Source of the DNA: Escherichia coli
Lineage (GTDB): Bacteria > Pseudomonadota > Gammaproteobacteria > Enterobacterales > Enterobacteriaceae
Strand: one strand, 5' to 3'
DNA: 64,000 bases
Assembly (NCBI RefSeq): GCF_051903065.1
Contig: NZ_CP178439.1
A program made the translations under genes and the position numbers. Positions 1,560 to 16,701 of the stretch are shown here, one piece after another; the first letter of the stretch is position 1, and every line of letters starts with the position of its first letter. The notes under the pieces are model-generated. The model ran no database searches and was not told where the DNA came from. It was given only the letters and a program-made list of their open reading frames with translations.

Positions 1560-4500
1560 GTGAAACTTAGAAAAACAATCACCTCAGCGATTATTGCATC
1601 AATGGTTGCCAATACTATGAGTTGGGCTTTTTATGTCACACTCATAAACATGGTAATGACACCACGTGTTTACGCTGCTGACGCTATATTTGACCAGCTC
1701 GAAAATAATTTTAACCTTGCAAATCCTAACGCAAATCGCAATGCAACCACCAGTGCTCAGGACATTGTGGAGAAATACAAGAACGCGGATTCAGGCGAGA
1801 ATGTCAGTGGGAAGATCACCGAGAAATACGTGGGTAAAGCCGAATCCGCTAATCTTAATCTCGGGAAGTATGGGGCAGGGAACTCTAATGAAAGTGTCAT
1901 GAAAAATGCCGCATCCGATGGAAAGTCTATTGGTAGCGCCGTACAACTGCCGAGTATGTCTGGAGGGACAATCAATTCAAACTACACCAAGGAAGGGGCA
2001 AAGCTGCTCTCTCGTGATGCTAATGGCAACATTGGTATAAGCAGTAATCCCAATACTACTCCTGGAACCAAAACAAATACGGGAGAGATTTTCAGCTCAG
2101 AGCAAAAGCACAGCGATATAAAGTTCAACGCCGCAGATCGTTATGGGGATGAGGATGGCTTTGTTAACGATATAAAGAATCGGAAAAGCCAGTTATTTGA
2201 TGCTCAAAGTTATGATGGCGTTGCCTACCGCACCCTCGTAAATGCTAACAAGGACAACCCGGCATCGTCTGTAAAGCCTAACGATCCCATGTTTACTGCG
2301 GGGAGAAATGAGATAACCAATGCTGTTGCTGGTACTGGAAACTGGCTTCAGAACTGTAATGTTGAGACCTCCAAAAAAACAGTAACCACACACTATCCTG
2401 ATTACAAAGAGTTCTACTGTAACTCGCCTAAGCAAGATAACTTCAGCAGCTGCACGATAACTCGTGACTTCTCTGTTCCTGTATACATTTCAGGCGGAAA
2501 CGGAGACATGTCGATGTGCGGCGATAATTGTGTGCGTATATGGTTTGGTCGCCGTGATGACAACTACTGGAGTGACGGGGTATTTAATAACGAACTGACA
2601 TTAAAATTCCATCCGGATGCAAAATTGGCCTCAGCAAAGATTGTTAACGCGGAGTGGGATGACCACATGCGGGTAACACTTGATGGCACGCAGATTTTTG
2701 CTCACATAGATGGTGCATATCGAGAAAGTGACTATCCGGCTCCAAAGGGATCTTGGGAGTTAAAAAAATCGTGGAAACTCGACAAAGTATACGATGTAAC
2801 TGAAAAGGTCAGAAAATCAGTTTATGAAGAACCTGATCGTGAAGTGACAATGGCATCCAGAGTCTGGGTTGGTGGGGGAGGTGAAGGGTACTTTGAGGTT
2901 GAGCTGACGTTTGAAAATATGAAGCTCGAAGATAAGCACGTCCAGGAACCAGCTGGTTGTTACGATGCTGTACAAACACCAAATACATTCTGCCGTTTCG
3001 ATCGGTTTAAAGATATGGATGTTGGCACGAAGCGGCTTCCGGAAAGCGTGCTTTCTATGGCAAAGCCGCTGTATGAAGGCGATAAAGGCTTTCTTACCTG
3101 GAAGACTAACCTTGAAGGCTATTTTTGTGATCCATTGGCTAAAGACAAGATTTGCTCTTATGACGCTAGTGGGAAAATTATGAAAGACGCTAATGGAAAG
3201 GACCTCTGTTACAACTACGAAGAAATTAAGAGTATGCCTGATGCATGTAGTTCTTATAAAAATGATGCAGCATGTGTACTCGATAAACAAACATGTGCAG
3301 AGGGTTGGTTCGATGAGGGCACTAACAGCTGCTACATGTATGAACAGAAATACACCTGTGACAGAGGTAAGGATGTAGTTCGTGAGGTTGAATCTTCTAC
3401 AAATGCCTGTGTTGGCATGATCCCATGTTCTGGAGGAACATGCGAAACTGGGCCAAAGGAAGAGAACAACGATTTTGGAAAAGTTGCGGCTTATTCAAAC
3501 ATGGTTCAGTACATGCAGGGCGAAGCCAAATGCGAAGACCCTAACGATGCCAATTCCTGTTCTGTCTTTGAAGGAAAACCTGAATGGTGTGGTCGTTCAG
3601 TAGGCTTTGTAAATGGCCTGGCAAAGACGGACTGCTGCGAAGCACCGCAGGGAACCGCAGGAGCACTTGAAGGTATCATGCTTGCCGGATCTATGATCAG
3701 AAACACTAACTGGACCAGAGTTAATGCTCAGCTAATAAAATGGACCGGCGGTGATACAGGTACATGGGCTTCTATGTCCAATGCGGTCGGTGAGTGGACT
3801 GCATCAGCTGGTAAAACAGTAGGGCAAATGTGGAACAATGTCACGAGCTCCTTAACGAGCGTATATGAAAACGTCGCTGGTAATCTAAGCAGGGCAGTTG
3901 GGTCTTCCGCAACTTCTGGAGGGGCAGGAGGTGCTGGCCAGTTGGCACAGGAAACAATGTCCAGCTTCGGTATAGGTCAGCTTAAGCAGATGGCAATGAA
4001 GAAAGCCTACGAATTGCTACCAGATACAGTTCGAGACTTTGTCTTTAAGAACGTTGCTACTACCGGAGGAGAGGTTGTCTTCTCGGCTGCGGTTCAAAAC
4101 TTTATGCTTGCATTAAACGTGATCGGTTGGATTTATACAGCCTATCAGGTCACTAAAATGCTTTTAGAAATGTTGGTAGCATGCGACCAGAAAGAGATGG
4201 AAGCTTCTATTCATAAGAATCAAAAATCCTGTTTTACATTAGATACGGAACGATGCGTCAAATATCTGAATGTTGGTTTCACAAAGAAATGCGTTAAAAA
4301 AGCAACAGACATGTGCTGTTATAATTCCATGTTGTCACGCGTTATTATGCAACAAGCTTATCCGCAATTAGGAATAGACCCTGTCGCCTCTAATTGCGTG
4401 GGGCTATCAATAAAGCAAATACAGCAACTGGATTTCGATAAAATTGATCTGACGGAGTGGATTAATGATGCAGTTCAGGTAGGAGAAGTTCCTGATCAAT

Positions 4501-4748
4501 ATTCAAAATTCTCCGAAGAATCAATTGTGGAAAACTTACCATTCCAGAATGAGAACTATCAACTTCCATCAGAACGTACCAAGGAAGCAATGGGCGGTGA
4601 AGAAAATATGATAAAGGCCAGACAAGAAAATGCTCAGGCTATAAAAGAGGAAAATGTAGATTGTAGCTATTTACCTCGACCGGCCATATGTGAGGTAGGT
4701 TCAACTACGCTGGATCCGGTTACGGGCAAGCAGTTGCCGAAATATTGA
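1560..4748 (+). CDS. traN: Mating-pair stabilisation protein TraN/TrhN, long form
   Basis: 1062-aa ORF with GTG start, N-terminal signal peptide, many conserved cysteines in the C-terminal half; conserved traW-traU-traN order. Confidence 0.8.
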   Translation: MKLRKTITSAIIASMVANTMSWAFYVTLINMVMTPRVYAADAIFDQLENNFNLANPNANRNATTSAQDIVEKYKNADSGENVSGKITEKYVGKAESANLNLGKYGAGNSNESVMKNAASDGKSIGSAVQLPSMSGGTINSNYTKEGAKLLSRDANGNIGISSNPNTTPGTKTNTGEIFSSEQKHSDIKFNAADRYGDEDGFVNDIKNRKSQLFDAQSYDGVAYRTLVNANKDNPASSVKPNDPMFTAGRNEITNAVAGTGNWLQNCNVETSKKTVTTHYPDYKEFYCNSPKQDNFSSCTITRDFSVPVYISGGNGDMSMCGDNCVRIWFGRRDDNYWSDGVFNNELTLKFHPDAKLASAKIVNAEWDDHMRVTLDGTQIFAHIDGAYRESDYPAPKGSWELKKSWKLDKVYDVTEKVRKSVYEEPDREVTMASRVWVGGGGEGYFEVELTFENMKLEDKHVQEPAGCYDAVQTPNTFCRFDRFKDMDVGTKRLPESVLSMAKPLYEGDKGFLTWKTNLEGYFCDPLAKDKICSYDASGKIMKDANGKDLCYNYEEIKSMPDACSSYKNDAACVLDKQTCAEGWFDEGTNSCYMYEQKYTCDRGKDVVREVESSTNACVGMIPCSGGTCETGPKEENNDFGKVAAYSNMVQYMQGEAKCEDPNDANSCSVFEGKPEWCGRSVGFVNGLAKTDCCEAPQGTAGALEGIMLAGSMIRNTNWTRVNAQLIKWTGGDTGTWASMSNAVGEWTASAGKTVGQMWNNVTSSLTSVYENVAGNLSRAVGSSATSGGAGGAGQLAQETMSSFGIGQLKQMAMKKAYELLPDTVRDFVFKNVATTGGEVVFSAAVQNFMLALNVIGWIYTAYQVTKMLLEMLVACDQKEMEASIHKNQKSCFTLDTERCVKYLNVGFTKKCVKKATDMCCYNSMLSRVIMQQAYPQLGIDPVASNCVGLSIKQIQQLDFDKIDLTEWINDAVQVGEVPDQYSKFSEESIVENLPFQNENYQLPSERTKEAMGGEENMIKARQENAQAIKEENVDCSYLPRPAICEVGSTTLDPVTGKQLPKY

Positions 4749-4752
4749 AGAA

Positions 4753-4774
4753 GGGGCCGTTAGGCCCCTTTTTT
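4753..4774. terminator. Bidirectional rho-independent terminator between traN and the convergent lipoprotein gene
   Basis: GGGGCC-gtta-GGCCCC stem-loop followed by TTTTTT and preceded by an A-rich tract. Confidence 0.7.
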
Positions 4775-4776
4775 AA

Positions 4777-5649
4777 TTACTTGGCTTTCAATGTTTTTTC
4801 TGGGAAGCCTTTTTTACCGTATTCACCGGTAAAGAGGTAATAATCTTTTCCGTTGATGGAGGCTGCAACACCCCCTGGAGTTGTTGTATTTGGGCTATCA
4901 GAACGGAAAATGATACCCGAAAAATCAGCGCTTGTTTCGTTTCCTTTAAATGGGATGAACACATAACGAATTACAGCGTAATCACCAGCGGGAAGGTTTA
5001 GCTGAGGAATTTCGGTTCCTGTTGCGGGGCGAATCGCCTGAAAGCTGTACATTGAATCTGTAGGGAAAACATCAGCATCAGGCTTAGAGGGCAGATCACA
5101 GGTACTCCATTTATTGACGACTGCCATATCAATTTTACATGTGGCCAGAGCTGCTTTCTGTTTTTCAGGGTTGTATCCAAATGAGGCCTGAGTTGCTTTT
5201 GTATGCTCAAAAACATACTTAGCTCCTTCACGTACCAAACTTTCATCATTGTAAGGCAATTTTTTTGGATTGGGGACGAACACTAGGTATTGATTGACCT
5301 GGATGTATTCGGCGTCAGAAGAACTGTACAAAGAGCCGAGGCTCATGATCCCAAAACCTTTTAGACCGCCTGTTACGTAGCCCATCGAACTATTGATGAG
5401 ATACTTAGAAAGAAAGTTGTCGGCATCCCCTCCAGGAGTAACCTCTTGCTCCTTAAAATTAACGTCGAAACCAGCAAACGAATAGGCATTCTTGGCGACA
5501 GAATCATTTGCTTTAGCATGCCAGTACTGGCCGTGACTGTACGCATTCAGAGCGGTGCCTGGCGTAGTGCCGGTGTCACCGGCACAACCCGATAGGGAAA
5601 AACCAATGACGACAGAAGAGACCAGAGATACTAAACGTAAAAGTTTCAT
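4777..5649 (-). CDS. Putative lipoprotein, function unknown
   Basis: 290-aa ORF; signal peptide with lipobox-like LSGC (LVSSVVIGFSLSGCAGD); no recognised catalytic motif. Confidence 0.6.
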   Translation of the reverse strand: MKLLRLVSLVSSVVIGFSLSGCAGDTGTTPGTALNAYSHGQYWHAKANDSVAKNAYSFAGFDVNFKEQEVTPGGDADNFLSKYLINSSMGYVTGGLKGFGIMSLGSLYSSSDAEYIQVNQYLVFVPNPKKLPYNDESLVREGAKYVFEHTKATQASFGYNPEKQKAALATCKIDMAVVNKWSTCDLPSKPDADVFPTDSMYSFQAIRPATGTEIPQLNLPAGDYAVIRYVFIPFKGNETSADFSGIIFRSDSPNTTTPGGVAASINGKDYYLFTGEYGKKGFPEKTLKAK

Positions 5650-5828
5650 TTAAAGCCCTTTTTGTAATGTCTTTTGGAGATGGAACCATTATTCCATAGT
5701 CACGCGTTTCACAAACAACCTGATTGCATAAAAAAGGAAAAAAAGTGATTTCCAGTAGAACCAGCAGTACACAAGAAAAGCGCTTTTATAAAAATGTATA
5801 ATTATTAAAACGAAGTAATGAGGTTGAA

Positions 5829-7613
5829 ATGGGTAAGCCAACAGAAGAGCAAAGACCTGTTATCGAGAATGCTAGCGCAAACAATATGGTGATAGCAGCG
5901 CCTGGATCAGGCAAATCATTCACCATGATAGAAGCGGTTATATCGATTCTCAAAAAGTATCCATATGCAAGAATCGGGATGGTGACCTTTACTCGCGCTG
6001 CAACAAACGCACTTGCAGCAAAGTTACAAAAGCGATTGAGCAAGAAGGATCTTGACCGGGTGCTGGTGGATACTTTTCACGGACTCGTTAAGAAGCAACT
6101 GGACATGATTCGCTGGCCGGGAAAGATGTTGATAGGGCCAGCACAGAGATCTGTCATTCACCGGGCTTTGAAAGAATCCGGTGTAACGATGAAGTTTGCT
6201 GAAGCTGAATTCGTTATTGATGCTATCGGCAGAGAAATGGATACGGATGTGATTTCAGTTCGGCATAACAGACAACAGATCCATTTATTTAATACCTATC
6301 AGGCGTTATGCCAGAAAGACCATGTGGCGGACCTCAATGCTCTTTCAAAATTTGTTGTCGGTCAAATGCATTCGGGAAAAATGCGCACGTTAGATTTGAC
6401 ACATTTGATAGTAGACGAAGTTCAGGATACTGACTCTATACAATTCTCATGGATAGCATTGCATACAAGAGCTGGAGTCTATACGAGTATAGTTGGAGAC
6501 GATGATCAGGCCATCTACTCCTTCAGATCCTCAGGAGGAGTCAAAATATTTCAACAGTTTGAAAAACACTTCAGACCTAACATATTTTACTTAAACACAT
6601 GCTTTAGGTGTGAACCTGAAATTTTAGAGGTGGCCGGAGCACTGATAGGAAAGAATGTTTACCGTTATGCCAAAGAGTTACGCTCGGCAAAAAAGGGAGG
6701 AGGAAAGGTCACTTTTCGTTCATATGTAGATATGGAGGAACAGATACAGGGTATTTTAAGCCTTATAAATCAGGATCCACATGGATGGGCAATTCTAAGC
6801 CGCAATAATGCTCACTTGGATGAGCTAGAAAGTTTGATCGAACAGCCAGTAATTCGTTACGGAGGTAAATCATTCTGGGATGAAAAAGAAACAAGCGATG
6901 TGTTAAGCCTTATGGCCTTTTTCCGACAATCAAATGATCCTCGCTTAATGAAGAGAGTATTGGCATTGTTTGGAGAACAGGAATCAGTTTTGGATGAAGT
7001 GGCATTGAGTATGAGAGGAAGAAAAGTTACTTTTGGCGACCTTGCCATCCCGGAGGACAGTTCTCTCGAAACAAAAACATTACATTCAAACTTCGTGCGC
7101 TTTACCCAGGAAAGTACTGATAAAGTTGAGATAGCAAAACGTTTCGCCAACCTTACGAAATGGATGGAATCGTCGTCAATCAAGATGAGGAGTAATAAAG
7201 GTACAGCAACCTTAACAAAAATTGCTTTAGACACTTGTAAACAGTGGGCAGAAAAGACTGGTTGGATGAATATGATCAATCGTGCTGCTGCAATGTCATT
7301 AGGCCCTAGGAAGAAGGACGAGGAATACAGCCCAGAGAAAGTAGTCCTATCAACCTTGCATGGTTCAAAGGGTCTTGAGTGGAATAAAGTAATAATAATG
7401 AGTTGTAATGCGGATCAGATACCAAGTAAAAGATCAGTTGGGGAGGAGGCAATAGAAGAAGAAAGACGTTTGCTTTATGTTGGATTTACGCGTGCAGAAA
7501 AGCAACTTTTTGTAATGTGGTATGGTGACCCTTCTTTCTTTTTAAGAGAATGCAGTGAAGAAAAGATAAAAGAAGCAGCTAATATTCGAATTTCTCCAGT
7601 TTATACAGAATAA
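5829..7613 (+). CDS. UvrD/Rep-family (SF1) DNA helicase
   Basis: Walker A AAPGSGKS near the N-terminus, DEVQD (DExx box), C-terminal TLHGSKGLEW and YVGFTRAEKQLFV helicase motifs; 594 aa. Confidence 0.85.
   Translation: MGKPTEEQRPVIENASANNMVIAAPGSGKSFTMIEAVISILKKYPYARIGMVTFTRAATNALAAKLQKRLSKKDLDRVLVDTFHGLVKKQLDMIRWPGKMLIGPAQRSVIHRALKESGVTMKFAEAEFVIDAIGREMDTDVISVRHNRQQIHLFNTYQALCQKDHVADLNALSKFVVGQMHSGKMRTLDLTHLIVDEVQDTDSIQFSWIALHTRAGVYTSIVGDDDQAIYSFRSSGGVKIFQQFEKHFRPNIFYLNTCFRCEPEILEVAGALIGKNVYRYAKELRSAKKGGGKVTFRSYVDMEEQIQGILSLINQDPHGWAILSRNNAHLDELESLIEQPVIRYGGKSFWDEKETSDVLSLMAFFRQSNDPRLMKRVLALFGEQESVLDEVALSMRGRKVTFGDLAIPEDSSLETKTLHSNFVRFTQESTDKVEIAKRFANLTKWMESSSIKMRSNKGTATLTKIALDTCKQWAEKTGWMNMINRAAAMSLGPRKKDEEYSPEKVVLSTLHGSKGLEWNKVIIMSCNADQIPSKRSVGEEAIEEERRLLYVGFTRAEKQLFVMWYGDPSFFLRECSEEKIKEAANIRISPVYTE
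7023..7033. repeat. AAAGTWACTTT palindromic motif copy 2
   Basis: AAAGTTACTTT inside the helicase gene (codons K-V-T-F). Confidence 0.6.
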
Positions 7614-7701
7614 TTCGATATGGGCATTTACTTATGCTTAAAGCTATAGTATAAAAACAATGAGCTTAAATATCAGCTCCCAAATTTGAGTAACTTTGCT
7701 T

Positions 7702-7712
7702 AAAGTTACTTT
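7702..7712. repeat. AAAGTWACTTT palindromic motif copy 3
   Basis: AAAGTTACTTT, intergenic; with the half-site AGTAACTTT at 7689-7697 forms a 9-bp hairpin AGTAACTTT-gctt-AAAGTTACT. Confidence 0.6.
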
Positions 7713-8007
7713 CGCGTTAAGCGTTGATTTAGCCGTGAAAAGCGGCCAGCTTAAACAAGCTGTAAGACACCACCGGCAAAATGTCACCTTTGTCGCTGGT
7801 GCACTTCCCATGCCTGAAAAAGGCAATCTGAATTTACCAAACCGTAACTAATTTAGCTCCTCCTGGAGCTATTTTTGTTGCGTACTTCTAATGCCAGATA
7901 GTATAAATCAGGCGGTTCATAGCTTACGGGAGATGAATGACAGGCTTTGCCTTCGTGTTGAAACAAAAAATTGTTTCTTCCTTCTTACTATATATAGGTG
8001 ACCCCAA

Positions 8008-8880
8008 ATGTCTAAAAATAAAGCTCGCAGTAAAGCCCTTCATCAAACCTTTAGTGAAATTATTCCAGAGATGGATAAGGCGCTAAACAAACAGCTCTTA
8101 GAAGTTCTGATGAAATATACAGAACGTGATAATGAACTGATTGTTATTTTGAATGAGGACGGCCCAAATATCATTGAACTTAAGTCTCTTAAGCCTGTGT
8201 CTTTGTTGGCCGAAAAGCTTTCTGCTTATTCAAGCTATTATCATGTGGATGTTGTGGAGCTCGTGGTCAAGAAAATTGATTTCGAAGGAGCTTATAAGCT
8301 TCTTAAAGCTTCCCCAGATGTACCACTTTTTAAAAGCTTAACTGAACTGGATAAATATCTTGTTGAGGAGTTTGAAAAATACGGATTAAATTCATTTCTT
8401 GACGTGGATAATCTGGATTACTCACTTGAAAAAGCCAGTGAACTCAAAAATGAGCAGTTAATAAATTGGGTTTCGGACATCATTTGCAAACGTGAAAAAT
8501 TAACTTTACGTAAGCGTTTTGATGTCGCAGTAAAGGCCCACTACGAAAATGTAGAAAAAATGTATGATACCATTCGTCCGTTAATGAAAAAACTGGGTTT
8601 CCCAGAAGATCTCATGACGCACACCTTTAGTGAGTTAAGCGTTTTTGAAACTAAAGGATGGGACCATGCAATAAAATCGAAAATTGAGACTCTCGCTAAG
8701 CGTGAAACTCAATATTTAGATGATGCGGCTAAAGCAGAGAATCGACGTCTTGTAACAGAGAAGTTGGAGAACTCTTTAGCGATTGCACCAACTAAACCAA
8801 CAAGAAATTGGTTACATATTGCCGGAATTGCCTGTTTGGTAGTCTGCACGTTCATGTATGTAACTAATAAATTTATTTAA
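8008..8880 (+). CDS. Hypothetical protein, C-terminal membrane anchor (ORFan array)
   Basis: 290-aa ORF; hydrophobic C-terminal segment IAGIACLVVCTFMYV; followed by a hairpin element. Confidence 0.55.
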   Translation: MSKNKARSKALHQTFSEIIPEMDKALNKQLLEVLMKYTERDNELIVILNEDGPNIIELKSLKPVSLLAEKLSAYSSYYHVDVVELVVKKIDFEGAYKLLKASPDVPLFKSLTELDKYLVEEFEKYGLNSFLDVDNLDYSLEKASELKNEQLINWVSDIICKREKLTLRKRFDVAVKAHYENVEKMYDTIRPLMKKLGFPEDLMTHTFSELSVFETKGWDHAIKSKIETLAKRETQYLDDAAKAENRRLVTEKLENSLAIAPTKPTRNWLHIAGIACLVVCTFMYVTNKFI

Positions 8881-8884
8881 TCCT

Positions 8885-8916
8885 GTTAAGGGGGAACCCT
8901 AACGGGGCTTCTCTTT
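8885..8916 (+). terminator. Structured GC-run intergenic element E1
   Basis: GTTAAGGGGG-aa-CCCTAAC-GGGGC then T-rich tract, between the stop at 8880 and the start at 8938. Confidence 0.4.
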
Positions 8917-8937
8917 GAACAAATCGAGGAGCGGAAA

Positions 8938-9315
8938 ATGTCATATCTTGAATATATCAATGAAGTAAAAGTGTCCGGGATAGTTATCAGTGCTGTGGAG
9001 AAAAAAATGACTGACCAGAGTATAGGTTTGTTAATAAAGCTCAAAAATAGGATGAAGACAGAAGTTGATGGTGAAATCACTGAGAGAGAATTTTCAGTTC
9101 AAATCAAGGTGTCGCCTGAAATGTATTCAACCTGTTTCACTGGTATAAATCAGGGTGATGAGTTGATGGTCTCCGGTTATATTGTTGTCGATACTATTAT
9201 GATTGAAGGGAGAGAACATCCTCTTGACTACATGAGAGTGGTAGCAACAAGTAAGTTGGCTCACATACCTAAACCTCTAAAAGGTTTTGGACAAAGTAGC
9301 TTTAATCAGATCTGA
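8938..9315 (+). CDS. Hypothetical protein
   Basis: 125-aa ORF, ATG start, same strand as neighbours, followed by a strong hairpin. Confidence 0.5.
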   Translation: MSYLEYINEVKVSGIVISAVEKKMTDQSIGLLIKLKNRMKTEVDGEITEREFSVQIKVSPEMYSTCFTGINQGDELMVSGYIVVDTIMIEGREHPLDYMRVVATSKLAHIPKPLKGFGQSSFNQI

Positions 9316-9322
9316 CATTAAA

Positions 9323-9366
9323 CCCACCCTAAAGGGGAGAAATCCCTTCATGGGATTTCTCCTTTT
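9323..9366 (+). terminator. Structured GC-run intergenic element E2 (rho-independent terminator-like)
   Basis: CCCACCC..GGGG, then an 11-bp stem GGAGAAATCCC / GGGATTTCTCC with loop TTCAT, then TTTT; the CTCC in the 3' arm is complementary to the downstream GGAG ribosome-binding site. Confidence 0.55.
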
Positions 9367-9375
9367 GGAGTCCCC

Positions 9376-10353
9376 ATGAAACAAAAATTTAGGGCTACTG
9401 CAATAAGTAGTAATCAACTTAGTTTTTTTTCTATACTCGATATAGATGAAGATGAAATAACGCAAATAGTTGATTCACCCAAAGAGCATTTAAATGATGC
9501 TTACACGTCCGGATTAAACTTTAAATCAGAAGAAAGTAACATTTCTGAGATAAATTATGATTCTGAAAGGCGTGAAAATCACCTTTATGAAAAATCCAAA
9601 TTACTTAAAAATCAGATTTTGCATACAATTAATTTTGCAACAGAAACAGATTATCTATATACGGTTGAAGAATATAACCCAGATTTGGGTGGTCTGGTAA
9701 TAGAATGGACCCCTGAGGATGTGTATGTTGTTTTTCTATCCGCTATGGAAGAGTCTTTGGAAATCATTAAAGAACTAGTGTTGAGGAGAAAGTTATTCTT
9801 CAAAGATGACAATGGTAATATCACAGTGAATCCACTTTTAGAAGCTGAAACACGGTGGTATATGTCAAAATCATTTGAATACACTTGTTTATCTCATGGA
9901 CTTGATGCATGTGAATTTAGAGCGGAATTAAAATCATGGCTCTATTATCATTCGCATCGTTCGATTAGTGAAAACACGAAATTAGCTGAATGCAGGAATG
10001 ATGATGAAATCATTTTGCATGATTGCAATGACGATATGGGCTGGGACATCTTCTTTGATCAGGATTATTTAATGTCAGAAAAAAAACTGGCTGTTAAATG
10101 GACTGACAGGGAAATTATGGATGTTTACATAAAAGCTTTTAAATCCTCATTAGAGTTGTTTGACGAGCTTGTTTCATGTGATCTGTTAACTAAACGAAAC
10201 GCTTTTGGCAAGTTAGAAATCAATCCAATATTCGAAAATCATTTTGAATGGATCATGTCTGAAGCTTTTGAAATAGTGGGAAATCATCTTGGTTATAATG
10301 TGCCTCAAATCAGGAAACTGATGGCAACTATTTGCCAAATGAATCTCAAATAA
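9376..10353 (+). CDS. Hypothetical protein
   Basis: 325-aa ORF, ATG start 10 nt after element E2. Confidence 0.55.
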   Translation: MKQKFRATAISSNQLSFFSILDIDEDEITQIVDSPKEHLNDAYTSGLNFKSEESNISEINYDSERRENHLYEKSKLLKNQILHTINFATETDYLYTVEEYNPDLGGLVIEWTPEDVYVVFLSAMEESLEIIKELVLRRKLFFKDDNGNITVNPLLEAETRWYMSKSFEYTCLSHGLDACEFRAELKSWLYYHSHRSISENTKLAECRNDDEIILHDCNDDMGWDIFFDQDYLMSEKKLAVKWTDREIMDVYIKAFKSSLELFDELVSCDLLTKRNAFGKLEINPIFENHFEWIMSEAFEIVGNHLGYNVPQIRKLMATICQMNLK

Positions 10354-10410
10354 AATGCCACTGGCAAACATCTGCCAGAGGGCGGTGTTTGCATTTTACC
10401 GGAGTTAAAA

Positions 10411-11469
10411 ATGTCTAATGCCGCTATGAAGTTAAATGAAACATCTTCTGATGCTTATGAAAAATTAGAAGCTCTTCTTTCCCCGGATGTTATAAAGTTA
10501 AAACATTATGTGGATAAAGGTGAGTATCTTTTAGTTCTAGCAAAGGACCTTTTTGGTATTCCAGAAATGGATCCAAAGATGGCTGTGCCTGTTTTCAAAA
10601 CTAAAACCTCGTATCGAGCTCCGCTGAACAAAGACTACATACCAAATCCCCGAATACTTGAACAAGTGGTTAAACTGCTTATCAGTCCGGATATAGATTT
10701 AAGTGTGTGTCTTAAAGGTGAGTCCGGTTCTGGCAAGACTGAAATGGTAATGTACATTAGCCACATGATGAATTGGCCGCTGACAATTAAGCAGATCAAC
10801 AGCAATATTCGAGTTGATGAGCTTGAAGGTGAGCGCAGTCTTAATGGTGGTAATACAGGTTTTGTACACAGCGATTTGGTAACGGGATTTCGTAATGGTC
10901 ACCTCATTCTTCTGGATGAAGTGGACAAAATCGATCCTGATACGGCAGCAAAACTTCACATGCCCATTGAACGTAAGCCCTGGTCACTCAGTGCTAATGG
11001 TGGTGAGGTTATAACTGCTAATGGCTACACGCGATTTATTGGTACTGCAAACACAAACATGAGTGGAGGCGCTCGCCGGTTCGTTTCTTCTCAACGTCAA
11101 GATGCAGCTTTTATAAAGCGGTTCTTGATAGTTGAAATGGAGAAGCCCGACAAAGTTGCTTTAACCAATGTGCTTACTAAACGATATAGCTCTTTGCCTT
11201 TTCAGGTCATTGAGAAGTTCGTAAGAGTAGCGATTGCAGTAAATGACTCTGGTACAGAAGACAGTGTGATGGATATTCGTCAATTAGTAGCTTGGGTTGG
11301 CACGTCGATGACGTTAAAAACCTTTAGTCTTCTTGACACTTTCAAAATAGCTTTTGCTTCTGCTTTACCTTTACATGTGGTCGATCTTGTTCTTCAAGCT
11401 ATAGATCTTTCTCTTGGCGAAGACAAGGATAAATCGCTGGAGTATTTCACAGCAAAAAAGTCGAGTTAG
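10411..11469 (+). CDS. AAA+ ATPase, MoxR/CbbQ/CobS-like
   Basis: Walker A GESGSGKT and Walker B HLILLDEVDK; 352 aa; a vWA-domain partner lies two genes downstream. Confidence 0.7.
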   Translation: MSNAAMKLNETSSDAYEKLEALLSPDVIKLKHYVDKGEYLLVLAKDLFGIPEMDPKMAVPVFKTKTSYRAPLNKDYIPNPRILEQVVKLLISPDIDLSVCLKGESGSGKTEMVMYISHMMNWPLTIKQINSNIRVDELEGERSLNGGNTGFVHSDLVTGFRNGHLILLDEVDKIDPDTAAKLHMPIERKPWSLSANGGEVITANGYTRFIGTANTNMSGGARRFVSSQRQDAAFIKRFLIVEMEKPDKVALTNVLTKRYSSLPFQVIEKFVRVAIAVNDSGTEDSVMDIRQLVAWVGTSMTLKTFSLLDTFKIAFASALPLHVVDLVLQAIDLSLGEDKDKSLEYFTAKKSS

Positions 11470-11780
11470 ATGGGATTTGTTATGAAACCTCTGATATTTG
11501 TATCTCAGAGTTATCCCATCTTGAATTTAGTGCGTTTTTAAGTACGGATGGTGCTGCTACCATTGCTATAGCAAAAAACGGAACTAATTTTACTGGACTT
11601 ATGCAACTGAATAACGACTATTCTTTATTGTTTTATCATGATGGTAAAATAAATATGGAAGGTCTGATTAAACAAATGGAATTAAAAGGTTATATGTATC
11701 AGGGAGCAATGGGCAATGATGATGTTGTTGCTGAGTTTCCCGGTATTCTTTTAATTTCACCAGAGTAGCTTTAATATCAA

Positions 11781-11827
11781 CCCTATCGGGAAATCTTTCC
11801 CGTTGGGGAGGGTTTCCCCTTTTTTTT
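11781..11827 (+). terminator. Structured GC-run intergenic element E3
   Basis: CGGGAAA-tc-TTTCCCG hairpin, GGGGA-GGGTT-TCCCC hairpin, T8 tract; GGGTTTC is complementary to the downstream GAAACCC next to the start codon. Confidence 0.5.
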
Positions 11828-11837
11828 GGAGAAACCC

Positions 11838-12965
11838 ATGACTTTAAATACTTCAATGCTTAACAAAGTATCTGCAAAACAAATCTCTGAGAATTTTGCA
11901 AAATCATATCCAGATTTACTGGAAGGTGCAGTTATAACAAAAATTGAAATAAGTGGCTGTCAAGGATCGCGTCGAACCGATAAAATCGATTTGTCTTATG
12001 ATGGAGATGATATTACGGATCAAAAAAGCGTATCTAAAAGCGAAGTACGCTGGATTGACATAAAAGCCCTTAGCTTCAAAAGTACGATTACCAGCAGAAT
12101 ATCAACTCTTTGCTCACGCTTGTGCATCCGCTATAGCAATATGTGGATTTTACCAGTATCCAGTATGGAAGAGTTTCTGGAAGGGGCCCAAGAGATTGAA
12201 CGAGAGTTTCAGGCAGGTATTCAAAACGTTGTAGACAATTATGAGATGCATATTGAGGCTGAAAAAAATAGAAGCCCAAGAATGTCTTCTTTGATTGATC
12301 AGTTGAAATTAACTAAAGATGATTTCATAAAATCCTTTAGATTTAATATTGCTCACTTTATTCCTTTTACGCCTATTAGCGTTGAAGGTGATGAAACCCA
12401 GGACTACTATCAGGAACAATTGATAACAGATCTGGCAGAAGAAGCAATGAAGGTTTATGAAAAAATTAGCAAAAATAACAATTTGCGCTCAAGTACTATT
12501 GACCGACTGAAGCAAATGCAAAATAAGATCATTAGCTTCATGTTTATACATAAAGAGGCGGCAGTACTTGCAGAAGCTATAAAACACATAATGAATAATT
12601 TACCTAAAGGTGCCATTTCTGAACCTCGCGACGTTGCGGTGTTACAGCAGTGGTTTTATTTCATGAGTGATGCTTCAATGTTAAAGCGTATTATTTCAGG
12701 AGAGCAAAAGGTTACTGACTGGTTGGAATCTATTACCAGATCATTTAATCAAAGCTCACAAACAGAACCGAACGCGCTACAGAACACAGGTATTGAAGCT
12801 ATTTTAGATTCAACAAATGTGTTCCAGGTTGAACCTGTCGTAGAGAACGATATAAATAACAGCACGTTTTCAAACACTGATCCTGTAGCTGAACCTGAGA
12901 AATCAGTTTCGCAACAGGAAGACAATGTTGAAAATGGTTTTGATATCGAGCTCAAAGGCTGGTAA
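11838..12965 (+). CDS. Hypothetical protein
   Basis: ORF in track from 11826 (TTG); ATG at 11838 with GGAGAAACCC upstream preferred; 375 aa. Confidence 0.55.
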   Translation: MTLNTSMLNKVSAKQISENFAKSYPDLLEGAVITKIEISGCQGSRRTDKIDLSYDGDDITDQKSVSKSEVRWIDIKALSFKSTITSRISTLCSRLCIRYSNMWILPVSSMEEFLEGAQEIEREFQAGIQNVVDNYEMHIEAEKNRSPRMSSLIDQLKLTKDDFIKSFRFNIAHFIPFTPISVEGDETQDYYQEQLITDLAEEAMKVYEKISKNNNLRSSTIDRLKQMQNKIISFMFIHKEAAVLAEAIKHIMNNLPKGAISEPRDVAVLQQWFYFMSDASMLKRIISGEQKVTDWLESITRSFNQSSQTEPNALQNTGIEAILDSTNVFQVEPVVENDINNSTFSNTDPVAEPEKSVSQQEDNVENGFDIELKGW

Positions 12966-12984
12966 CTGTTTGCTTTATTAAAAA

Positions 12985-13027
12985 CCCCAGATGGGTACTT
13001 CACCATCTGGGTGAGTACCCCTTTTTT
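12985..13027 (+). terminator. Structured GC-run intergenic element E4, interleaved dyads
   Basis: CCCAGATGG/CCATCTGGG and GGGTACT/AGTACCC dyads interleaved (pseudoknot-like or alternative hairpins), followed by TTTTTT. Confidence 0.5.
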
Positions 13028-13042
13028 ATAAAGAGGTATTCT

Positions 13043-15055
13043 ATGAAATTAGATCTTAAATCATCACCGCGCCATATTAAGCGTTTACAGAATATAGCAA
13101 AAGTCATTAGCGGCTTAGGCGATGTAAGAGTTGTAATAGACGACAATACCAAAGGACCGTATTTTGATCCTGTAAATAAAGTTTGTGTTTTACCAAACGG
13201 CGATTATAGCGATGATGACTTTGTCAGTCTGATTGAAGGTTTTACCTGTCATGAAGCTGGTCATGGTCGCTATACCGACAGCGAGGTTTACAGTGACGCC
13301 TTTAATAGTGTTCTCAAGTCATCTGAAGGGTTTACACGCTTCGATGACGGAATGAATGCAGAGTTTGAGAGCCTCGCTGAGAAACGTAAAGCTTATAGCA
13401 GGGCAAAACGTCTTACCGGGCTTATAAATCTGTTCGATGATGTACAGATGGAAGAGAAGGTTGGTAACGATTATCCGGATGCAAAGCGGCGGCTTGCAGC
13501 CACTTACGCACTGATGGTTAAAGCCGGAAGGATGACTCCTGATATATCTTCTCGTCCGGAAAATCCTGTCCTATTTATTGAGTGGTATCTGCTTAACTCA
13601 TTGCGAGTAAAAGTCCTTCAGCAGGCAGGTCACAAAGAAACACTCGATCCGTTTTTTGACTATGCCCAAAAGATACTTTCTCCAGTAATTTCTGATGTTG
13701 AGGAAATTTTTCATGATGCTCTTGGTTGTGAAAATACTCAGGGCTGTGAATCCCTTGCTCGTAAGACCCTGGCTCTTTTAGAGAGACTGCGGGATGAGGC
13801 AAGGGAACAACAGCAGCAGACAGAGCAGGAGGAGCAGGAGGCATATGATGAATCCGAGACCGAGACCGAGACCGATACCGAATCAGAAGATAAATCGCTT
13901 GAGTCGACTGATAGTCGTGAGGATGATTCTGAGGACGATAGTGAAGGTCAGGCAGATACTTCCGATAACTCTGATCTTGCTCAAGAGGGATGTTCTGAGC
14001 CTTCAGAACTTGCTGAAGATAACGAGGGAAATAATGAACCCACCGGTGGCAATCCCACAGGTGATAACATTATTGAAGACGATACTGATGCGATTAACCC
14101 TTCCGAGAGTGAATCAGATGAAGCCAGTTCGACTAACGTTGAAGATGAAAGTAACTTTTCATCGGCTCAATGGGAGATACTGGCAGATTTGTTGGATGCC
14201 TTTCTTGGCAGTGATGAGGATAGCGAAGATTATCACGATGCTTTGGCTAAAGAGATTGAAGGTATTGCATCAAAAGTATCCGATGACGTGAAAGCCGAAT
14301 TCGGTGCTTCTGAATGGGATATCCCTGATCTCCTTATCGATTTGAATGTTTACAATGAGGCTTTGTCTCTGAGTCATTCAATCGGTAGCGACTTGTCTGT
14401 TTTACAGCAGGTTAAAATGCGTGGCCGAAACAAAACTCATGAGCGTGGAATTACCTTCGATGGAAATCGATTAATTCTGTCACCAATGGGAGTTCGTGAT
14501 GTCTTCAGAGCTCAAAGCGAATCTAAAAATAGAGGGCATGTTGGCCTCGTATTAGTTCGTGATATTTCAGCGTCAATGGCTAATGATGAAAGATATATTC
14601 ATGCCATTAAGTCAGATCTTGCTTTATCGATGGCCGCTGAAAGTTTGTCAAAAATGCATGTCTCCAATATAGTCTTTCCCTTCAAGGAAAGTGAATTTGA
14701 GATTATCAAAACGTTTGATCAAAGCGTTGAGGAATCTCTATCGAAATTCACTCTTGGATGTAAGGGTTATTATACCCCTACGGGATCGGCTTTAATGGCA
14801 GCTGTTGATCTGTTACTTGACAGCCAATTCGATAGGAAAATAATTTTTCTTATAACTGATGGTTATCCGAATAAATCGGAATTTACTATCGGCGAAGTTA
14901 TGGAAAAGGCTAAATGTAATGGAATAGAAATCGTTGGTGTTGGTATTAAGACTGATGAAATAATTGGTTTTGAAACGGACACTTTCGTAACAGTTGATGA
15001 TACTTCTTTATTGTCTATTGAAGTCAGTAAGCTAGTTCATCAAATACTTTCTTAA
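13043..15055 (+). CDS. vWA-domain protein with long acidic linker (CobT/ViaA-like partner of the AAA+ ATPase)
   Basis: C-terminal vWA/MIDAS motifs (VRDISASM, TPTGSA, ITDGYPN); central Asp/Glu-rich low-complexity stretch (ETETETDTESEDKS and onward); 670 aa. Confidence 0.7.
   Translation: MKLDLKSSPRHIKRLQNIAKVISGLGDVRVVIDDNTKGPYFDPVNKVCVLPNGDYSDDDFVSLIEGFTCHEAGHGRYTDSEVYSDAFNSVLKSSEGFTRFDDGMNAEFESLAEKRKAYSRAKRLTGLINLFDDVQMEEKVGNDYPDAKRRLAATYALMVKAGRMTPDISSRPENPVLFIEWYLLNSLRVKVLQQAGHKETLDPFFDYAQKILSPVISDVEEIFHDALGCENTQGCESLARKTLALLERLRDEAREQQQQTEQEEQEAYDESETETETDTESEDKSLESTDSREDDSEDDSEGQADTSDNSDLAQEGCSEPSELAEDNEGNNEPTGGNPTGDNIIEDDTDAINPSESESDEASSTNVEDESNFSSAQWEILADLLDAFLGSDEDSEDYHDALAKEIEGIASKVSDDVKAEFGASEWDIPDLLIDLNVYNEALSLSHSIGSDLSVLQQVKMRGRNKTHERGITFDGNRLILSPMGVRDVFRAQSESKNRGHVGLVLVRDISASMANDERYIHAIKSDLALSMAAESLSKMHVSNIVFPFKESEFEIIKTFDQSVEESLSKFTLGCKGYYTPTGSALMAAVDLLLDSQFDRKIIFLITDGYPNKSEFTIGEVMEKAKCNGIEIVGVGIKTDEIIGFETDTFVTVDDTSLLSIEVSKLVHQILS
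14148..14158. repeat. AAAGTWACTTT palindromic motif copy 4
   Basis: AAAGTAACTTT inside the vWA gene acidic region (E-S-N-F). Confidence 0.6.
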
Positions 15056-15063
15056 TAAACTCT

Positions 15064-15099
15064 ACCCAATCGGGGCAAAAGGCCCCGGTGGGTCTTTTT
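15064..15099 (+). terminator. Intergenic element E5, rho-independent terminator
   Basis: ACCCAATCGGGGC-aaaag-GCCCCGGTGGGT nested hairpin followed by CTTTTT. Confidence 0.6.
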
Positions 15100-15126
15100 G
15101 CTCCATGAAGGAATAAGGAGCAAAAT

Positions 15127-15348
15127 ATGACTCAGATAAAAACTTACCGTGTAGAACATGAAAAAGTCGGTGCGATGCATAAAGTCCGTATTTTCGGACG
15201 TGTTGGTGAAGTTATAAGCAATGATAGCCCTCAGGAAAGAATCTTCCGCGAAGTCACTATAGCGGAGGGTAATAGCCAGCAGGCTGCGTTACTTGTAGAT
15301 AACTACATACAGCGTCTTGAGAATAATGGCTTCACGACTGAAGCATAA
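15127..15348 (+). CDS. Small hypothetical protein (73 aa)
   Basis: ATG start with AAGGAG upstream; flanked by hairpin elements E5 and E6. Confidence 0.5.
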   Translation: MTQIKTYRVEHEKVGAMHKVRIFGRVGEVISNDSPQERIFREVTIAEGNSQQAALLVDNYIQRLENNGFTTEA

Positions 15349-15354
15349 ATGTTG

Positions 15355-15377
15355 AGGGCCCCCGGGCCCTCTTTCTT
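15355..15377 (+). terminator. Intergenic element E6
   Basis: GAGGGCCC-CC-GGGCCCTC perfect hairpin followed by TTTCTT. Confidence 0.55.
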
Positions 15378-15461
15378 AAATTCTGCGTTGTGGGTTTCTC
15401 CCTGTCTTCTGCACCGCAGAAGGCATTGAGAAACTCACAATGCCAGATAAGAGAGATCATC

Positions 15462-16694
15462 ATGACTTATGCATCCCCGGCTCTTCGTCGTAATCCACAG
15501 GAAGTATCTGAACACTTTATTAAACTCGTTCATGCTCGAATTGCTGAAGTGTCTGGCTGGAAGTATATATTCGAAAGAATACCTGCTTTCAAAGACGCTT
15601 GTGCAAAAGCCCCGAGCCAGGTTCCTTGCCCGTTTACTGGCGCAGGGAAATCGAAGTTTCGTTTCCGACAAAAAGACCTTTATACCGGATGTGCGATCCA
15701 TAATGACTTTCCGGTAAATGAGTTTTGCGACGGAATTGATGTTCTGGCGAAATATTATGAATTAAGTAAAACGCAGACTTGCAAAAAGATTCTCTCAGAT
15801 TTTTTCGGGATGGATCTGCATGCTCCGTTAACTGACGCCGACATTGAAAATGAACGACGCTATAAATCAGCAGTTCGTGCCACAGAAACTCTTGACCGAG
15901 AGGAAGTGGCAAAGCGAATGCGAAAACTTGATGTGATGTATCACTATACCGGTGAAATCAAGCCTAATACTCCTGTTGCTTTGTACCTCCGTAATCGTGG
16001 GATCTCCCGCTTACTGAGTCACTTACCAAAGGATTTAGGCTTTAATAACCGGATCTACTATTGGGATAAAGATAAGCAGAAATCGATTATCTATCCGGGA
16101 ATGATTGCGATCTATCGTGACACCCGAGGTCGGCCTCTGACTATTCATAGAACATACGTAGACAAAAATGGTGATAAGGCACCTGTAGAAAATCCAAAGC
16201 TGATGATGAAGCCTCCTGCCGATATGACAGGTGGCTCAATTCAGTTGTTTGACCCTCACTATGATTCAGGTAGTTCGACCTGGACACTGGGAGTGGCTGA
16301 AGGGATCGAGAACGCGCTTTCTGTTGTAGAAGCGACTTCAACACCATGCTGGGCAGCCAGCTCCGCATGGTGCCTTGAAAACGTTACTGTTCCTGATTTT
16401 TTACTGCCTCCGCCGGATGTAAAATCTATAAACTTTTATATCTGGGCGGATAAGGATATTGCTAACTCACAAGGCACTCGTGCCGGTATTGAAGCTGCTC
16501 AGCGACTTCAAAGCCGCATGGTTGAGTTTTTGGCTAAACGATATCCCGCATCAAAGCTGACAATTGAAGTCTTCGAACCAGCACAAGATATTCCTGATGG
16601 GAAAAAGGGTATCGACTGGAACGATGTTCTCCAGTTAACAGGGCAGGATGGATTCCCGATTCACTGGGCTCCTGAATGTCTTAATCAGCTGTAA
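15462..16694 (+). CDS. DNA primase-like protein (zinc-ribbon plus Toprim)
   Basis: N-terminal CPFTGAGKSKFRF..GCAIHNDF resembles the primase-helicase zinc-binding motif; Toprim-like VAEGIENALSV and WADKDIANSQG (DxD); track ORF starts at GTG 15390, ATG 15462 preferred. Confidence 0.5.
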   Translation: MTYASPALRRNPQEVSEHFIKLVHARIAEVSGWKYIFERIPAFKDACAKAPSQVPCPFTGAGKSKFRFRQKDLYTGCAIHNDFPVNEFCDGIDVLAKYYELSKTQTCKKILSDFFGMDLHAPLTDADIENERRYKSAVRATETLDREEVAKRMRKLDVMYHYTGEIKPNTPVALYLRNRGISRLLSHLPKDLGFNNRIYYWDKDKQKSIIYPGMIAIYRDTRGRPLTIHRTYVDKNGDKAPVENPKLMMKPPADMTGGSIQLFDPHYDSGSSTWTLGVAEGIENALSVVEATSTPCWAASSAWCLENVTVPDFLLPPPDVKSINFYIWADKDIANSQGTRAGIEAAQRLQSRMVEFLAKRYPASKLTIEVFEPAQDIPDGKKGIDWNDVLQLTGQDGFPIHWAPECLNQL

Positions 16695-16701
16695 CAACGA
16701 T

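Follow-up and report, generated by a model that had tools for sequence, protein, structure and literature searches.

Positions 4777-7613 of a 64,000-nucleotide stretch of Escherichia coli DNA (contig NZ_CP178439.1; the entire stretch is hereafter the window) belong to an IncHI2 plasmid, in which they make up the distal edge of the Tra2 transfer region. The two open reading frames (ORFs) found there are trhI (5829-7613), a backbone gene coding for a DNA helicase of superfamily 1A (SF1A), and the gene for a conserved IncHI lipoprotein (4777-5649), the orthologue of R0004 in plasmid R27. TrhI belongs to a compact clade of helicases that tracks conjugative elements and a DNA-metabolism module, and not a particular pilus type. 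We tentatively regard it as an auxiliary, plasmid-supplied motor which would unwind DNA during conjugative processing, an assignment whose chances we judge to be a little under even.

Identity of the region

The window represents IncHI2 plasmid backbone and is colinear with pAPEC-O1-R (NC_009838), an IncHI2A plasmid with a MOBH relaxase and an MPF_F transfer system, to which it is 99.97-100% identical over the first 20 kb and most of the remainder. Bases 4500-8100 match more than 1,000 IncHI2 plasmids from E. coli, Salmonella and Enterobacter at 100% nucleotide identity (1,115 records at 99% or above), and in more than 1,100 plasmids RefSeq labels the identical gene “IncHI-type conjugal transfer helicase TrhI”. 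Upstream, trhU (TraU match, E = 4.7e-82) and trhN close the ‘AN’ transfer operon of R27, and the R27 order trhU-trhN-lipoprotein-trhI is matched here, with trhN, the lipoprotein gene and trhI corresponding to R0005, R0004 and R0003 (‘DNA helicase’), respectively. Since trhI is a named and annotated gene, ubiquitous in the IncHI backbone, its recognition in itself brings nothing new. Full-text literature searches brought it up only in gene lists and maps, where it is labelled ‘DNA helicase’ and not given a tested role, and a search for TraDIS or Tn-seq experiments on IncHI plasmids gave nothing relevant. Its name presumably echoes that of F traI.

TrhI represents a distinct clade of UvrD-like helicases

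A preliminary description of the segment, made from the sequence alone, had proposed a full helicase of the UvrD/Rep type, 594 aa in length, next to a divergent lipoprotein gene, and both genes are indeed present as described. TrhI matches UvrD-helicase (PF00580; E = 9.9e-33, 114.4 bits against a cut-off of 23), UvrD_C (PF13361; E = 3.5e-32, 112.6 bits against 25.6) and AAA_19 (E = 5.4e-15), and the domains above the Pfam gathering thresholds, together with motifs Walker A, Ia and II-VI, place it in SF1A. Residues 6-564 can be aligned with residues 12-614 of E. coli UvrD (3lfu; E = 4.7e-33) with every SF1A motif present, and it also aligns with Rep (E = 2.4e-29) and with PcrA from B. stearothermophilus (E = 1.6e-25). 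TrhI has its fold class and all seven helicase motifs in common with these enzymes of solved structure, but it is shorter (594 vs 673-724 aa), plasmid-borne and tied to conjugative elements. Its alignment stops at UvrD residue 614, and the C-terminal region of about 100 aa found in UvrD (ca. 720 aa by the NCBIfam models) is lacking.

In 21 members of the clade, at identities down to 26%, we find invariant Walker A residues (G26, G28 and K29), the DExQD box at 196-200 (D196, E197, Q199 and D200), motif III (G223-R233), R260, motif V at 511-516 (H511, K514, G515 and L516) and motif VI at 547-556 (R547, T554, R555 and A556). Comparison of the IncHI1 and IncHI2 genes yields pN of 0.11 and pS of 0.83, indicating strong purifying selection. 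Judging from the invariant catalytic residues and from this selection, TrhI is almost certainly an active ATPase/helicase.

Database searches recovered a compact set of 587-625-aa proteins (P0001-P0031) ranging from 99% to 26% identity to TrhI, below which the scores fall to generic PcrA/UvrD-like proteins of 738 aa, with identities to such matches of about 21-27%. The protein encoded in the window is identical to IncHI2 TrhI (WP_000517886), and TrhI of R27 and pHCM1 (R0003; WP_000517883) is 82% identical to it, with the same length, neighbours and orientation. A phylogenetic comparison with UvrD, Rep and helicase IV, as the preliminary description had proposed, resolves TrhI into its own clade: in a neighbour-joining tree built without bootstrap, 29 of 29 clade members, the Vibrio protein included, are monophyletic, and E. 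coli UvrD, Rep and HelD fall outside. PcrA and GajB were compared by profile scores. Orthology was considered for each of the housekeeping helicases and rejected on the NCBIfam equivalog models, to which TrhI scores 176.6 (NF008743) and 175.7 bits (TIGR01075) for UvrD against cut-offs of 965 and 1144, 179.9 against 951 for Rep, 158.6 against 911 for PcrA, and 91.4 against 543 for helicase IV (HelD). With 91-180 bits where 543-1,144 are called for, TrhI is not an orthologue of any of them.

Conserved gene order and distant relatives

The position of trhI proved to be conserved in related plasmids. The typical order consists of traN, a lipoprotein gene of about 290 aa on the opposite strand, the helicase, a spacer of some 330-430 bp, genes for proteins of about 290, 125 and 330 aa, and AAA_5, which in IncHI1, IncHI2 and IncHI3, where the flanks reach further, is followed by DUF3150, VWA and toprim genes. 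It is kept in IncHI1 (82% TrhI identity), in IncHI3, by which we mean Klebsiella plasmids with the IncHI1B replicon (49%), and in five more IncHI-like lineages from assemblies and metagenomes (78-54%). The core of this arrangement (traN, opposite-strand lipoprotein and helicase) is also found in the Vibrio campbellii plasmid pIFL1_1 (31%) and at the metagenomic locus L013 (30%), which has the IncHI layout. Because the gene order is fixed across lineages, the ‘tra block’ and the ‘ORFan array’, between which the preliminary description had placed the helicase, are joined by a backbone segment, and not by a chance insertion. The helicase had also been called a lone gene, which is correct insofar as no other UvrD-like ORF occurs in the window and the gene apparently possesses its own promoter and terminator; however, it is a fixed part of a conserved order rather than an isolated insertion.

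We also examined seven genes of the clade at 26-33% identity, and all of them are located among conjugation or DNA-metabolism genes of mobile elements. At L006, the TrhI relative directly follows genes for an S26 peptidase, TrbC and TraU and precedes a toprim gene and RecT. At L007 and L008, the helicase adjoins genes for a DtrJ-like protein, a type IV coupling protein (T4CP) and TraI_2, the MOBH relaxase, with a single-stranded DNA-binding protein (SSB) and PDDEXK on the other side, and L007 additionally contains AAA_5, DUF3150 and CobT/VWA. The helicase at L009 lies near FlhC-like, TraI_2, T4CP and DtrJ-like genes in an element which has VirB3, VirB4 and VirB11-like (T2SSE) genes instead of F-type ones, as well as Toprim and DUF3150. 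At L014, a Vibrio plasmid, it is upstream of SSB, AAA_5, DUF3150, VWA and toprim, and at L015 the upstream side resembles that of L008 (SSB, PDDEXK), with the contig ending just past the helicase. Overall, a MOBH relaxase is seen in six of the contexts in which clade members occur, and in three of these (L007, L008 and L009) relaxase and T4CP genes stand beside the helicase.

In the distant branch, a same-strand unannotated gene coding for 241-364 aa is situated immediately ahead of the helicase (L007, 9279-10004; L008, 8901-9974; L009, 9147-10004; L015, 8902-9996), by MOBH relaxase genes where the flanks reach that far. In L007 and L009 its end overlaps the start of the helicase gene, and in L015 and L008 a gap of 4-26 nt separates the two. 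It has no Pfam match and, as compared for L007-L009, no similarity to the IncHI lipoprotein. The product of this gene may be a partner of the helicase.

Possible role of TrhI

The preliminary description had offered conjugative DNA processing, plasmid-specific replication and defence as possible roles; the gene context favours conjugation or DNA metabolism, defence is unlikely, and nothing points to replication. If TrhI is the unwinding motor proposed above, the IncHI MobH relaxase, itself without a recognisable helicase domain, would nick the origin of transfer (oriT). By analogy with PcrA, TrhI, as a 3'-5' SF1A enzyme, would then be loaded on the non-transferred strand at this nick and displace the T-strand, allowing transfer and replacement synthesis. 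The host UvrD or Rep could probably substitute for it, in which case TrhI would raise efficiency or host range without being essential. In the 1,050-aa IncHI2 MobH only the TraI_2 domain was detected, with no P-loop helicase domain at E <= 0.01, and TrhI in turn shows only helicase domains over its whole 594 aa in Pfam, with no fused relaxase (HUH) domain, so it does not belong to the relaxase-helicases. In F TraI and R388 TrwC, a relaxase domain and an SF1B helicase (RecD-like, 5'-3') reside in a single polypeptide. These proteins perform the unwinding of conjugative DNA proposed here for TrhI, but TrhI is SF1A and lacks a relaxase domain, the relaxase of IncHI plasmids being a protein of its own, MobH. 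A closer parallel is provided by the integrative and conjugative element (ICE) ICEBs1, in which the relaxase NicK, devoid of a helicase domain, uses a separate UvrD/PcrA-type helicase, PcrA, with the processivity factor HelP to unwind the nicked oriT; PcrA unwinds from the nick for rolling-circle-replicating plasmids as well as for ICEBs1, and serves as a model for TrhI. In ICEBs1, however, the helicase is host-encoded, its requirement has been demonstrated rather than inferred as for TrhI, and the relaxase family is other than the MOBH found here; a homologue of HelP was not seen in the present plasmid, although no search aimed at it was made.

A role in conjugation is supported by the fixed position of trhI next to traN across IncHI lineages and by the location of its distant relatives beside MOBH and T4CP genes. 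In R27, moreover, trhI is de-repressed 8.7-fold in an htdA mutant at 25 C, and the neighbouring tra genes 12-17-fold (Gibert et al. 2020, PMC7366339). Several observations weigh against it. The same data set counts 35 genes in the six tra operons of R27 and trhI is not one of them; its expression is similar at 25 and 37 C (560 vs 494 units, fold change 1.13), that is, not thermoregulated; and de-repression in the htdA mutant is unspecific, as 106 of 170 non-tra genes respond (PMC7366339). For the related MOBH systems Rts1 and SXT, the full lists of genes needed for conjugation comprise 32 and 23 genes, respectively, with the relaxase, T4CP, TraJ/DUF4400 and MobI among them, and no helicase, while R27 is ascribed a relaxase, a T4CP and two essential auxiliary proteins of DNA transfer and replication (Dtr), TrhI not among them. 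In the IncHI2 plasmid, a distance of about 108 kb separates trhI from the mobI-mobH-traD cluster, the expected location of oriT. Finally, in most relatives the helicase is also a neighbour of the SSB, recombinase, AAA_5, DUF3150, VWA and primase-like cluster, an arrangement that also fits a different function. Since the required sets of Rts1 and SXT have no helicase, the Dtr set of R27 does not include TrhI, and trhI is outside the tra operons, the function to be expected is auxiliary and redundant with that of the host.

That different function would consist in working with the downstream DNA-metabolism module (SSB, RecT or PDDEXK exonuclease, AAA_5/DUF3150/VWA, and primase-like toprim) on incoming or recombining plasmid DNA, in recipient establishment, complementary-strand synthesis, recombination or repair, and not at the donor oriT. 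We consider it unlikely, if by no means negligible: the module genes are the most constant neighbours of TrhI-clade genes (IncHI1/2/3, Vibrio plasmids, L006, L007, L008, L009 and L015), and in R27 the module that follows trhI (R0002-R0204) is co-induced with transfer, by 5-23-fold at 25 C and, in the htdA mutant, by 19-61-fold (PMC7366339), but trhI appears to form a separate transcription unit with its own terminator and, unlike the module, shows no induction at 25 C in wild-type R27 (see above); in three elements, the helicase abuts the relaxase and T4CP genes; and the R27 study assigns no function to the module genes (PMC7366339). Still less probable is an accessory replisome helicase, similar to Rep or UvrD and devoted to vegetative maintenance, which would clear transcription complexes and tightly bound proteins off a large protein-coated plasmid and thereby lower its fitness cost. 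Such a helicase might be expressed alike at 25 and 37 C, independently of transfer conditions, as trhI is in R27; the profile scores of TrhI are nearest to Rep and UvrD; and the plasmid has 42 copies, nearly all in the backbone, of a probably protein-bound palindrome, one of them inside trhI (see below). Nonetheless, TrhI is without the C-terminal region of about 100 aa present in UvrD, and the C-termini of UvrD-type helicases mediate partner contacts; its distant relatives adjoin genes for Dtr or mating-pair formation rather than replication; and the plasmid's repHI2 and RepB-family genes are situated about 72 kb and about 38 kb away from trhI, respectively. TrhI does group with a conserved backbone helicase of its plasmid family, as the preliminary description had envisaged for a replication enzyme, but there is no sign of its being a replication helicase.

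A part in anti-phage or anti-plasmid defence, as the helicase of a Gabija-like (GajB) or related system, appears highly improbable. TrhI is a UvrD-like helicase of a size similar to GajB, and PADLOC matches it best to GajB profiles (E = 2.9e-42, 143 bits) and to the profile of a DRT-associated helicase; in addition, the equivalent traN-proximal position in SXT/R391 ICEs is a variable hotspot. The GajB matches, however, are no better than the generic matches to Rep, UvrD and PcrA profiles, and TrhI is found in a separate clade and in a conserved conjugative context. Membership in Gabija was rejected, as there is no GajA next door, where trhI is flanked by the lipoprotein and a hypothetical protein, and PADLOC revealed neither GajA nor another defence partner in the six neighbours scanned (4777-5649 and 8008-15055, leaving out ORFs 8938-9315 and 11601-11768); it is on these two grounds, generic GajB matches and no partner, that we reject defence. 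Furthermore, the toprim protein encoded downstream resembles a primase (DUF7146 and Toprim_3; in L009 also a primase zinc ribbon) and not an OLD-family nuclease, and trhI is a part of the fixed backbone in lineages down to 26% identity, and not variable cargo.

Table 1. Coordinates of genes and non-coding features in and around the trhI segment (positions in the window)
Feature	Position	Strand	Remarks
trhN (F-type TraN homologue)	1560-4748	+	last gene of the R27 ‘AN’ transfer operon
Conserved IncHI lipoprotein gene, 290 aa, ATG start	4777-5649	-	WP_000771832; R27 R0004 orthologue; convergent with trhN, divergent from trhI
Divergent spacer, 179 bp, 32% GC	5650-5828		likely trhI promoter, TG + TATAAT at 5795-5802; Shine-Dalgarno GAGG at 5820-5823
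trhI, SF1A UvrD/Rep/PcrA-like DNA helicase, 594 aa, ATG start	5829-7613	+	WP_000517886; Pfam, RefSeq identity, motif alignment
Palindrome AAAGTTACTTT in trhI codons R-K-V-T-F	7023-7033		nt 1195 of the gene; same gene position in eight IncHI-like lineages
Hairpin AGTAACTTT/gctt/AAAGTTACT	7689-7712		arms 7689-7697 and 7702-7710, 9 nt, 100% complementary, 4-nt loop
Three conserved stem-loops in the trhI 3' region: GCCGTGAAAAGCGGC; CAGCTT-AAAC-AAGCTG; CACCACCGGC...GCTGGTG	7732-7801	+	alignment of 8 lineages
Intrinsic-terminator-like hairpin followed by a T-run	7843-7882	+	core 7854-7871; probable end of the trhI transcript
Near-invariant non-coding block TACTTCTAATGCCAGATAGTATAAATCAGGCGGTT...GACAGGCTTTGCC	7883-7951	+	TATAAA at 7902-7907, non-conserved -35
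First operon gene, 290 aa	8008-8880	+	R27 R0002 orthologue; operon runs via AAA_5, DUF3150 and VWA to toprim
AAAGTWACTTT copies (11 nt each), first positions	500, 7023, 7702, 14148, 17893, 22530, 26723, 30168, 46596, 51189, 62454

The lipoprotein gene and its flanking spacers

The gene diverging from trhI across the 179-bp spacer encodes a protein labelled ‘hypothetical protein’ in RefSeq and ‘lipoprotein’ in IncHI1 records (Table 1). Its N-terminus, MKLLRLVSLVSSVVIGFSLSGC, consists of a signal peptide and the lipobox LSGC at residues 19-22, with Ala at +2, and qualifies it as a lipoprotein; among 21 homologues, Cys22 and Cys184 are invariant, and Cys171 nearly so. By the +2 rule of E. coli, Ala or Ser at this position suggests sorting to the outer membrane. 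The family occurs only in IncHI-like plasmids of Enterobacterales and is under purifying selection, and comparison with structurally characterised lipoprotein families revealed no sequence or fold similarity to a described family. In the Vibrio plasmid pIFL1_1 and at L013, a lipobox protein of similar size occupies the same place in the same orientation, with nothing convincingly alike beyond the signal peptide, which may point to an envelope function tied to the place next to traN. In R27, R0004 ranks with the most strongly expressed genes at either temperature (9,779 and 5,433 units; PMC7366339), and such constitutive high expression argues against its being a regulated pilus component.

In the divergent spacer, a likely trhI promoter was read from conserved hexamers and is not a mapped start site; its TATAAT is kept on the trhI side in IncHI1 plasmids despite an IS1 insertion about 113 bp upstream. 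A generic promoter scan of 4600-8100 showed no enrichment over shuffled sequences and missed the candidate promoters. The two spacers that flank the lipoprotein gene, 4749-4776 and 5650-5828, are recurrent insertion sites in related plasmids, in which the flanking genes remain intact. Between the lipoprotein gene and trhI, we found IS1 and IS200/IS605 in IncHI1, and IS200/IS605 together with toxin-antitoxin genes in IncHI3, and in another class of IncHI1 plasmids the interruption falls at the junction of trhN with the lipoprotein gene. A transposon between trhN and trhI has been reported in typhoid plasmids.

Conserved non-coding architecture downstream of trhI

The spacer that follows trhI had been described as AT-rich and 400 bp long. 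Its length is indeed 394 bp (7614-8007), but its GC content of 39.6% is ordinary for this part of the plasmid (40.6% over the initial 20 kb), and an equal or lower value is reached in 43% of local segments of 394 bp. The spacer is functional DNA, though for reasons other than its base composition. Its conservation between IncHI1 and IncHI2 is highly uneven, with 55% identity over the first 90 nt and 87% over 7701-7960, as compared with 74% for trhI and 67% for the next gene, and the predicted RNA fold of 7611-7885 has a z-score of -6.25. A motif copy, the third in the window, had been placed in a hairpin within this spacer, and there is indeed a perfect 9-nt inverted repeat (7689-7710), the 3' arm of which overlaps the third copy of AAAGTWACTTT (AAAGTTACTTT, 7702-7712). 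This hairpin (helix 4) is kept only in IncHI1 and IncHI2, with 51% of cells paired over 8 lineages.

Better conserved are the structures that follow it. The stem-loops formed by helices 6, 7 and 8 are 85-93% paired in 8 lineages, helices 7 and 8 each having three pairs that are changed on both sides, and the terminator helices 10 and 11 are 83% paired, with six such pairs. The helicase gene appears to be transcribed alone, from a putative extended -10-type promoter to the hairpin terminator about 260 nt past the stop codon, and the 3' stem-loops with the terminator may constitute a stabilising 3' untranslated region or a small RNA. Four same-strand copies of the heptamer GCTTAAA occur within 120 nt (7636-7755), mostly in stem-loop arms; this local cluster is above chance, although the total of 17 in the window is not.

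Over 7866-7925, IncHI1 and IncHI2 share 97% identity, as compared with 74% in the trhI coding sequence, and the block at 7883-7951 is almost invariant as far as IncHI3, where proteins are only about 49% identical. This block is probably an activator-dependent promoter and leader of the thermoregulated operon corresponding to R0002-R0204. An Rfam scan of 4000-10000 at E <= 1 gave no match, either to the 3' structures or to the leader. The operon is the beginning of the former ‘ORFan array’ (about 8008-16700), with ORFs at 8008-8880, 8938-9315, 9376-10353, 10411-11469, 11826-12965 and 13043-15055, followed by toprim; with its genes for 290, 125 and 325 aa, AAA_5, DUF3150, VWA and the primase-like toprim protein, it corresponds to R27 R0002-R0204. 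Relatives of this operon add SSB and RecT or PDDEXK genes. The induction ranges given above for R27 refer to the nine genes R0002-R0204, which begin right after the spacer (PMC7366339).

A dispersed palindrome in the IncHI backbone

The palindrome AAAGTWACTTT, or aAAAGTWACTTTt in its extended form, is present in 11 copies in the window, where 0.05 would be expected, and the mapped copies are mostly inside genes. The complete plasmid pAPEC-O1-R contains 42 copies, of which 41 are in the 187-kb backbone and one is in the 54-kb resistance region, while the next commonest odd palindrome reaches 5. Positions of the palindrome are conserved across IncHI1, IncHI2 and IncHI3: the copy within trhI is fixed in these three groups and in five other lineages, even though synonymous sites are saturated, and a copy in the spacer after trhI is kept in seven of eight lineages, its position shifting. 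The Vibrio and distant metagenomic elements lack the palindrome. It is a plasmid-wide feature, and not one specific to trhI.

The set of sites looks like the dispersed operators of a plasmid-encoded DNA-binding protein, and resembles the KorB OB sites of RK2. A literature search on the sequence itself gave nothing relevant, and a search for binding sites of TrhR, TrhY or HtdA gave nothing. Two copies in pAPEC-O1-R (L011, 23697-23707 and 24182-24192) lie in non-coding DNA upstream of mobI-mobH-traD, the region in which oriT is expected by analogy with SXT and IncC.

Implications for IncHI plasmids

Taken more broadly, the TrhI family could be a distinct class of helicases supplied in trans in a subset of MOBH elements, with either F-type or VirB-like mating-pair genes, and unwinding DNA for relaxases without a helicase of their own, with trhI also housing one fixed site of a 42-copy AAAGTWACTTT network used by an IncHI DNA-binding protein to control or organise the whole plasmid. 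This combined proposal is speculative, and we think it rather more apt to fail than to hold. What the analysis adds to the annotation is modest, namely, that the link of the TrhI clade with conjugative elements, several of which are MOBH, holds over deep divergence, and that there is conserved non-coding architecture, with a dispersed palindrome, around and inside trhI, which may deserve separate study; of the loose ends, the palindrome is the most interesting. It should be kept in mind that in Salmonella, E. coli, Enterobacter and Klebsiella, IncHI plasmids have a major share in carrying multidrug, mcr-1 and heavy-metal resistance, and there is therefore practical value in knowing which of their backbone genes drive transfer.

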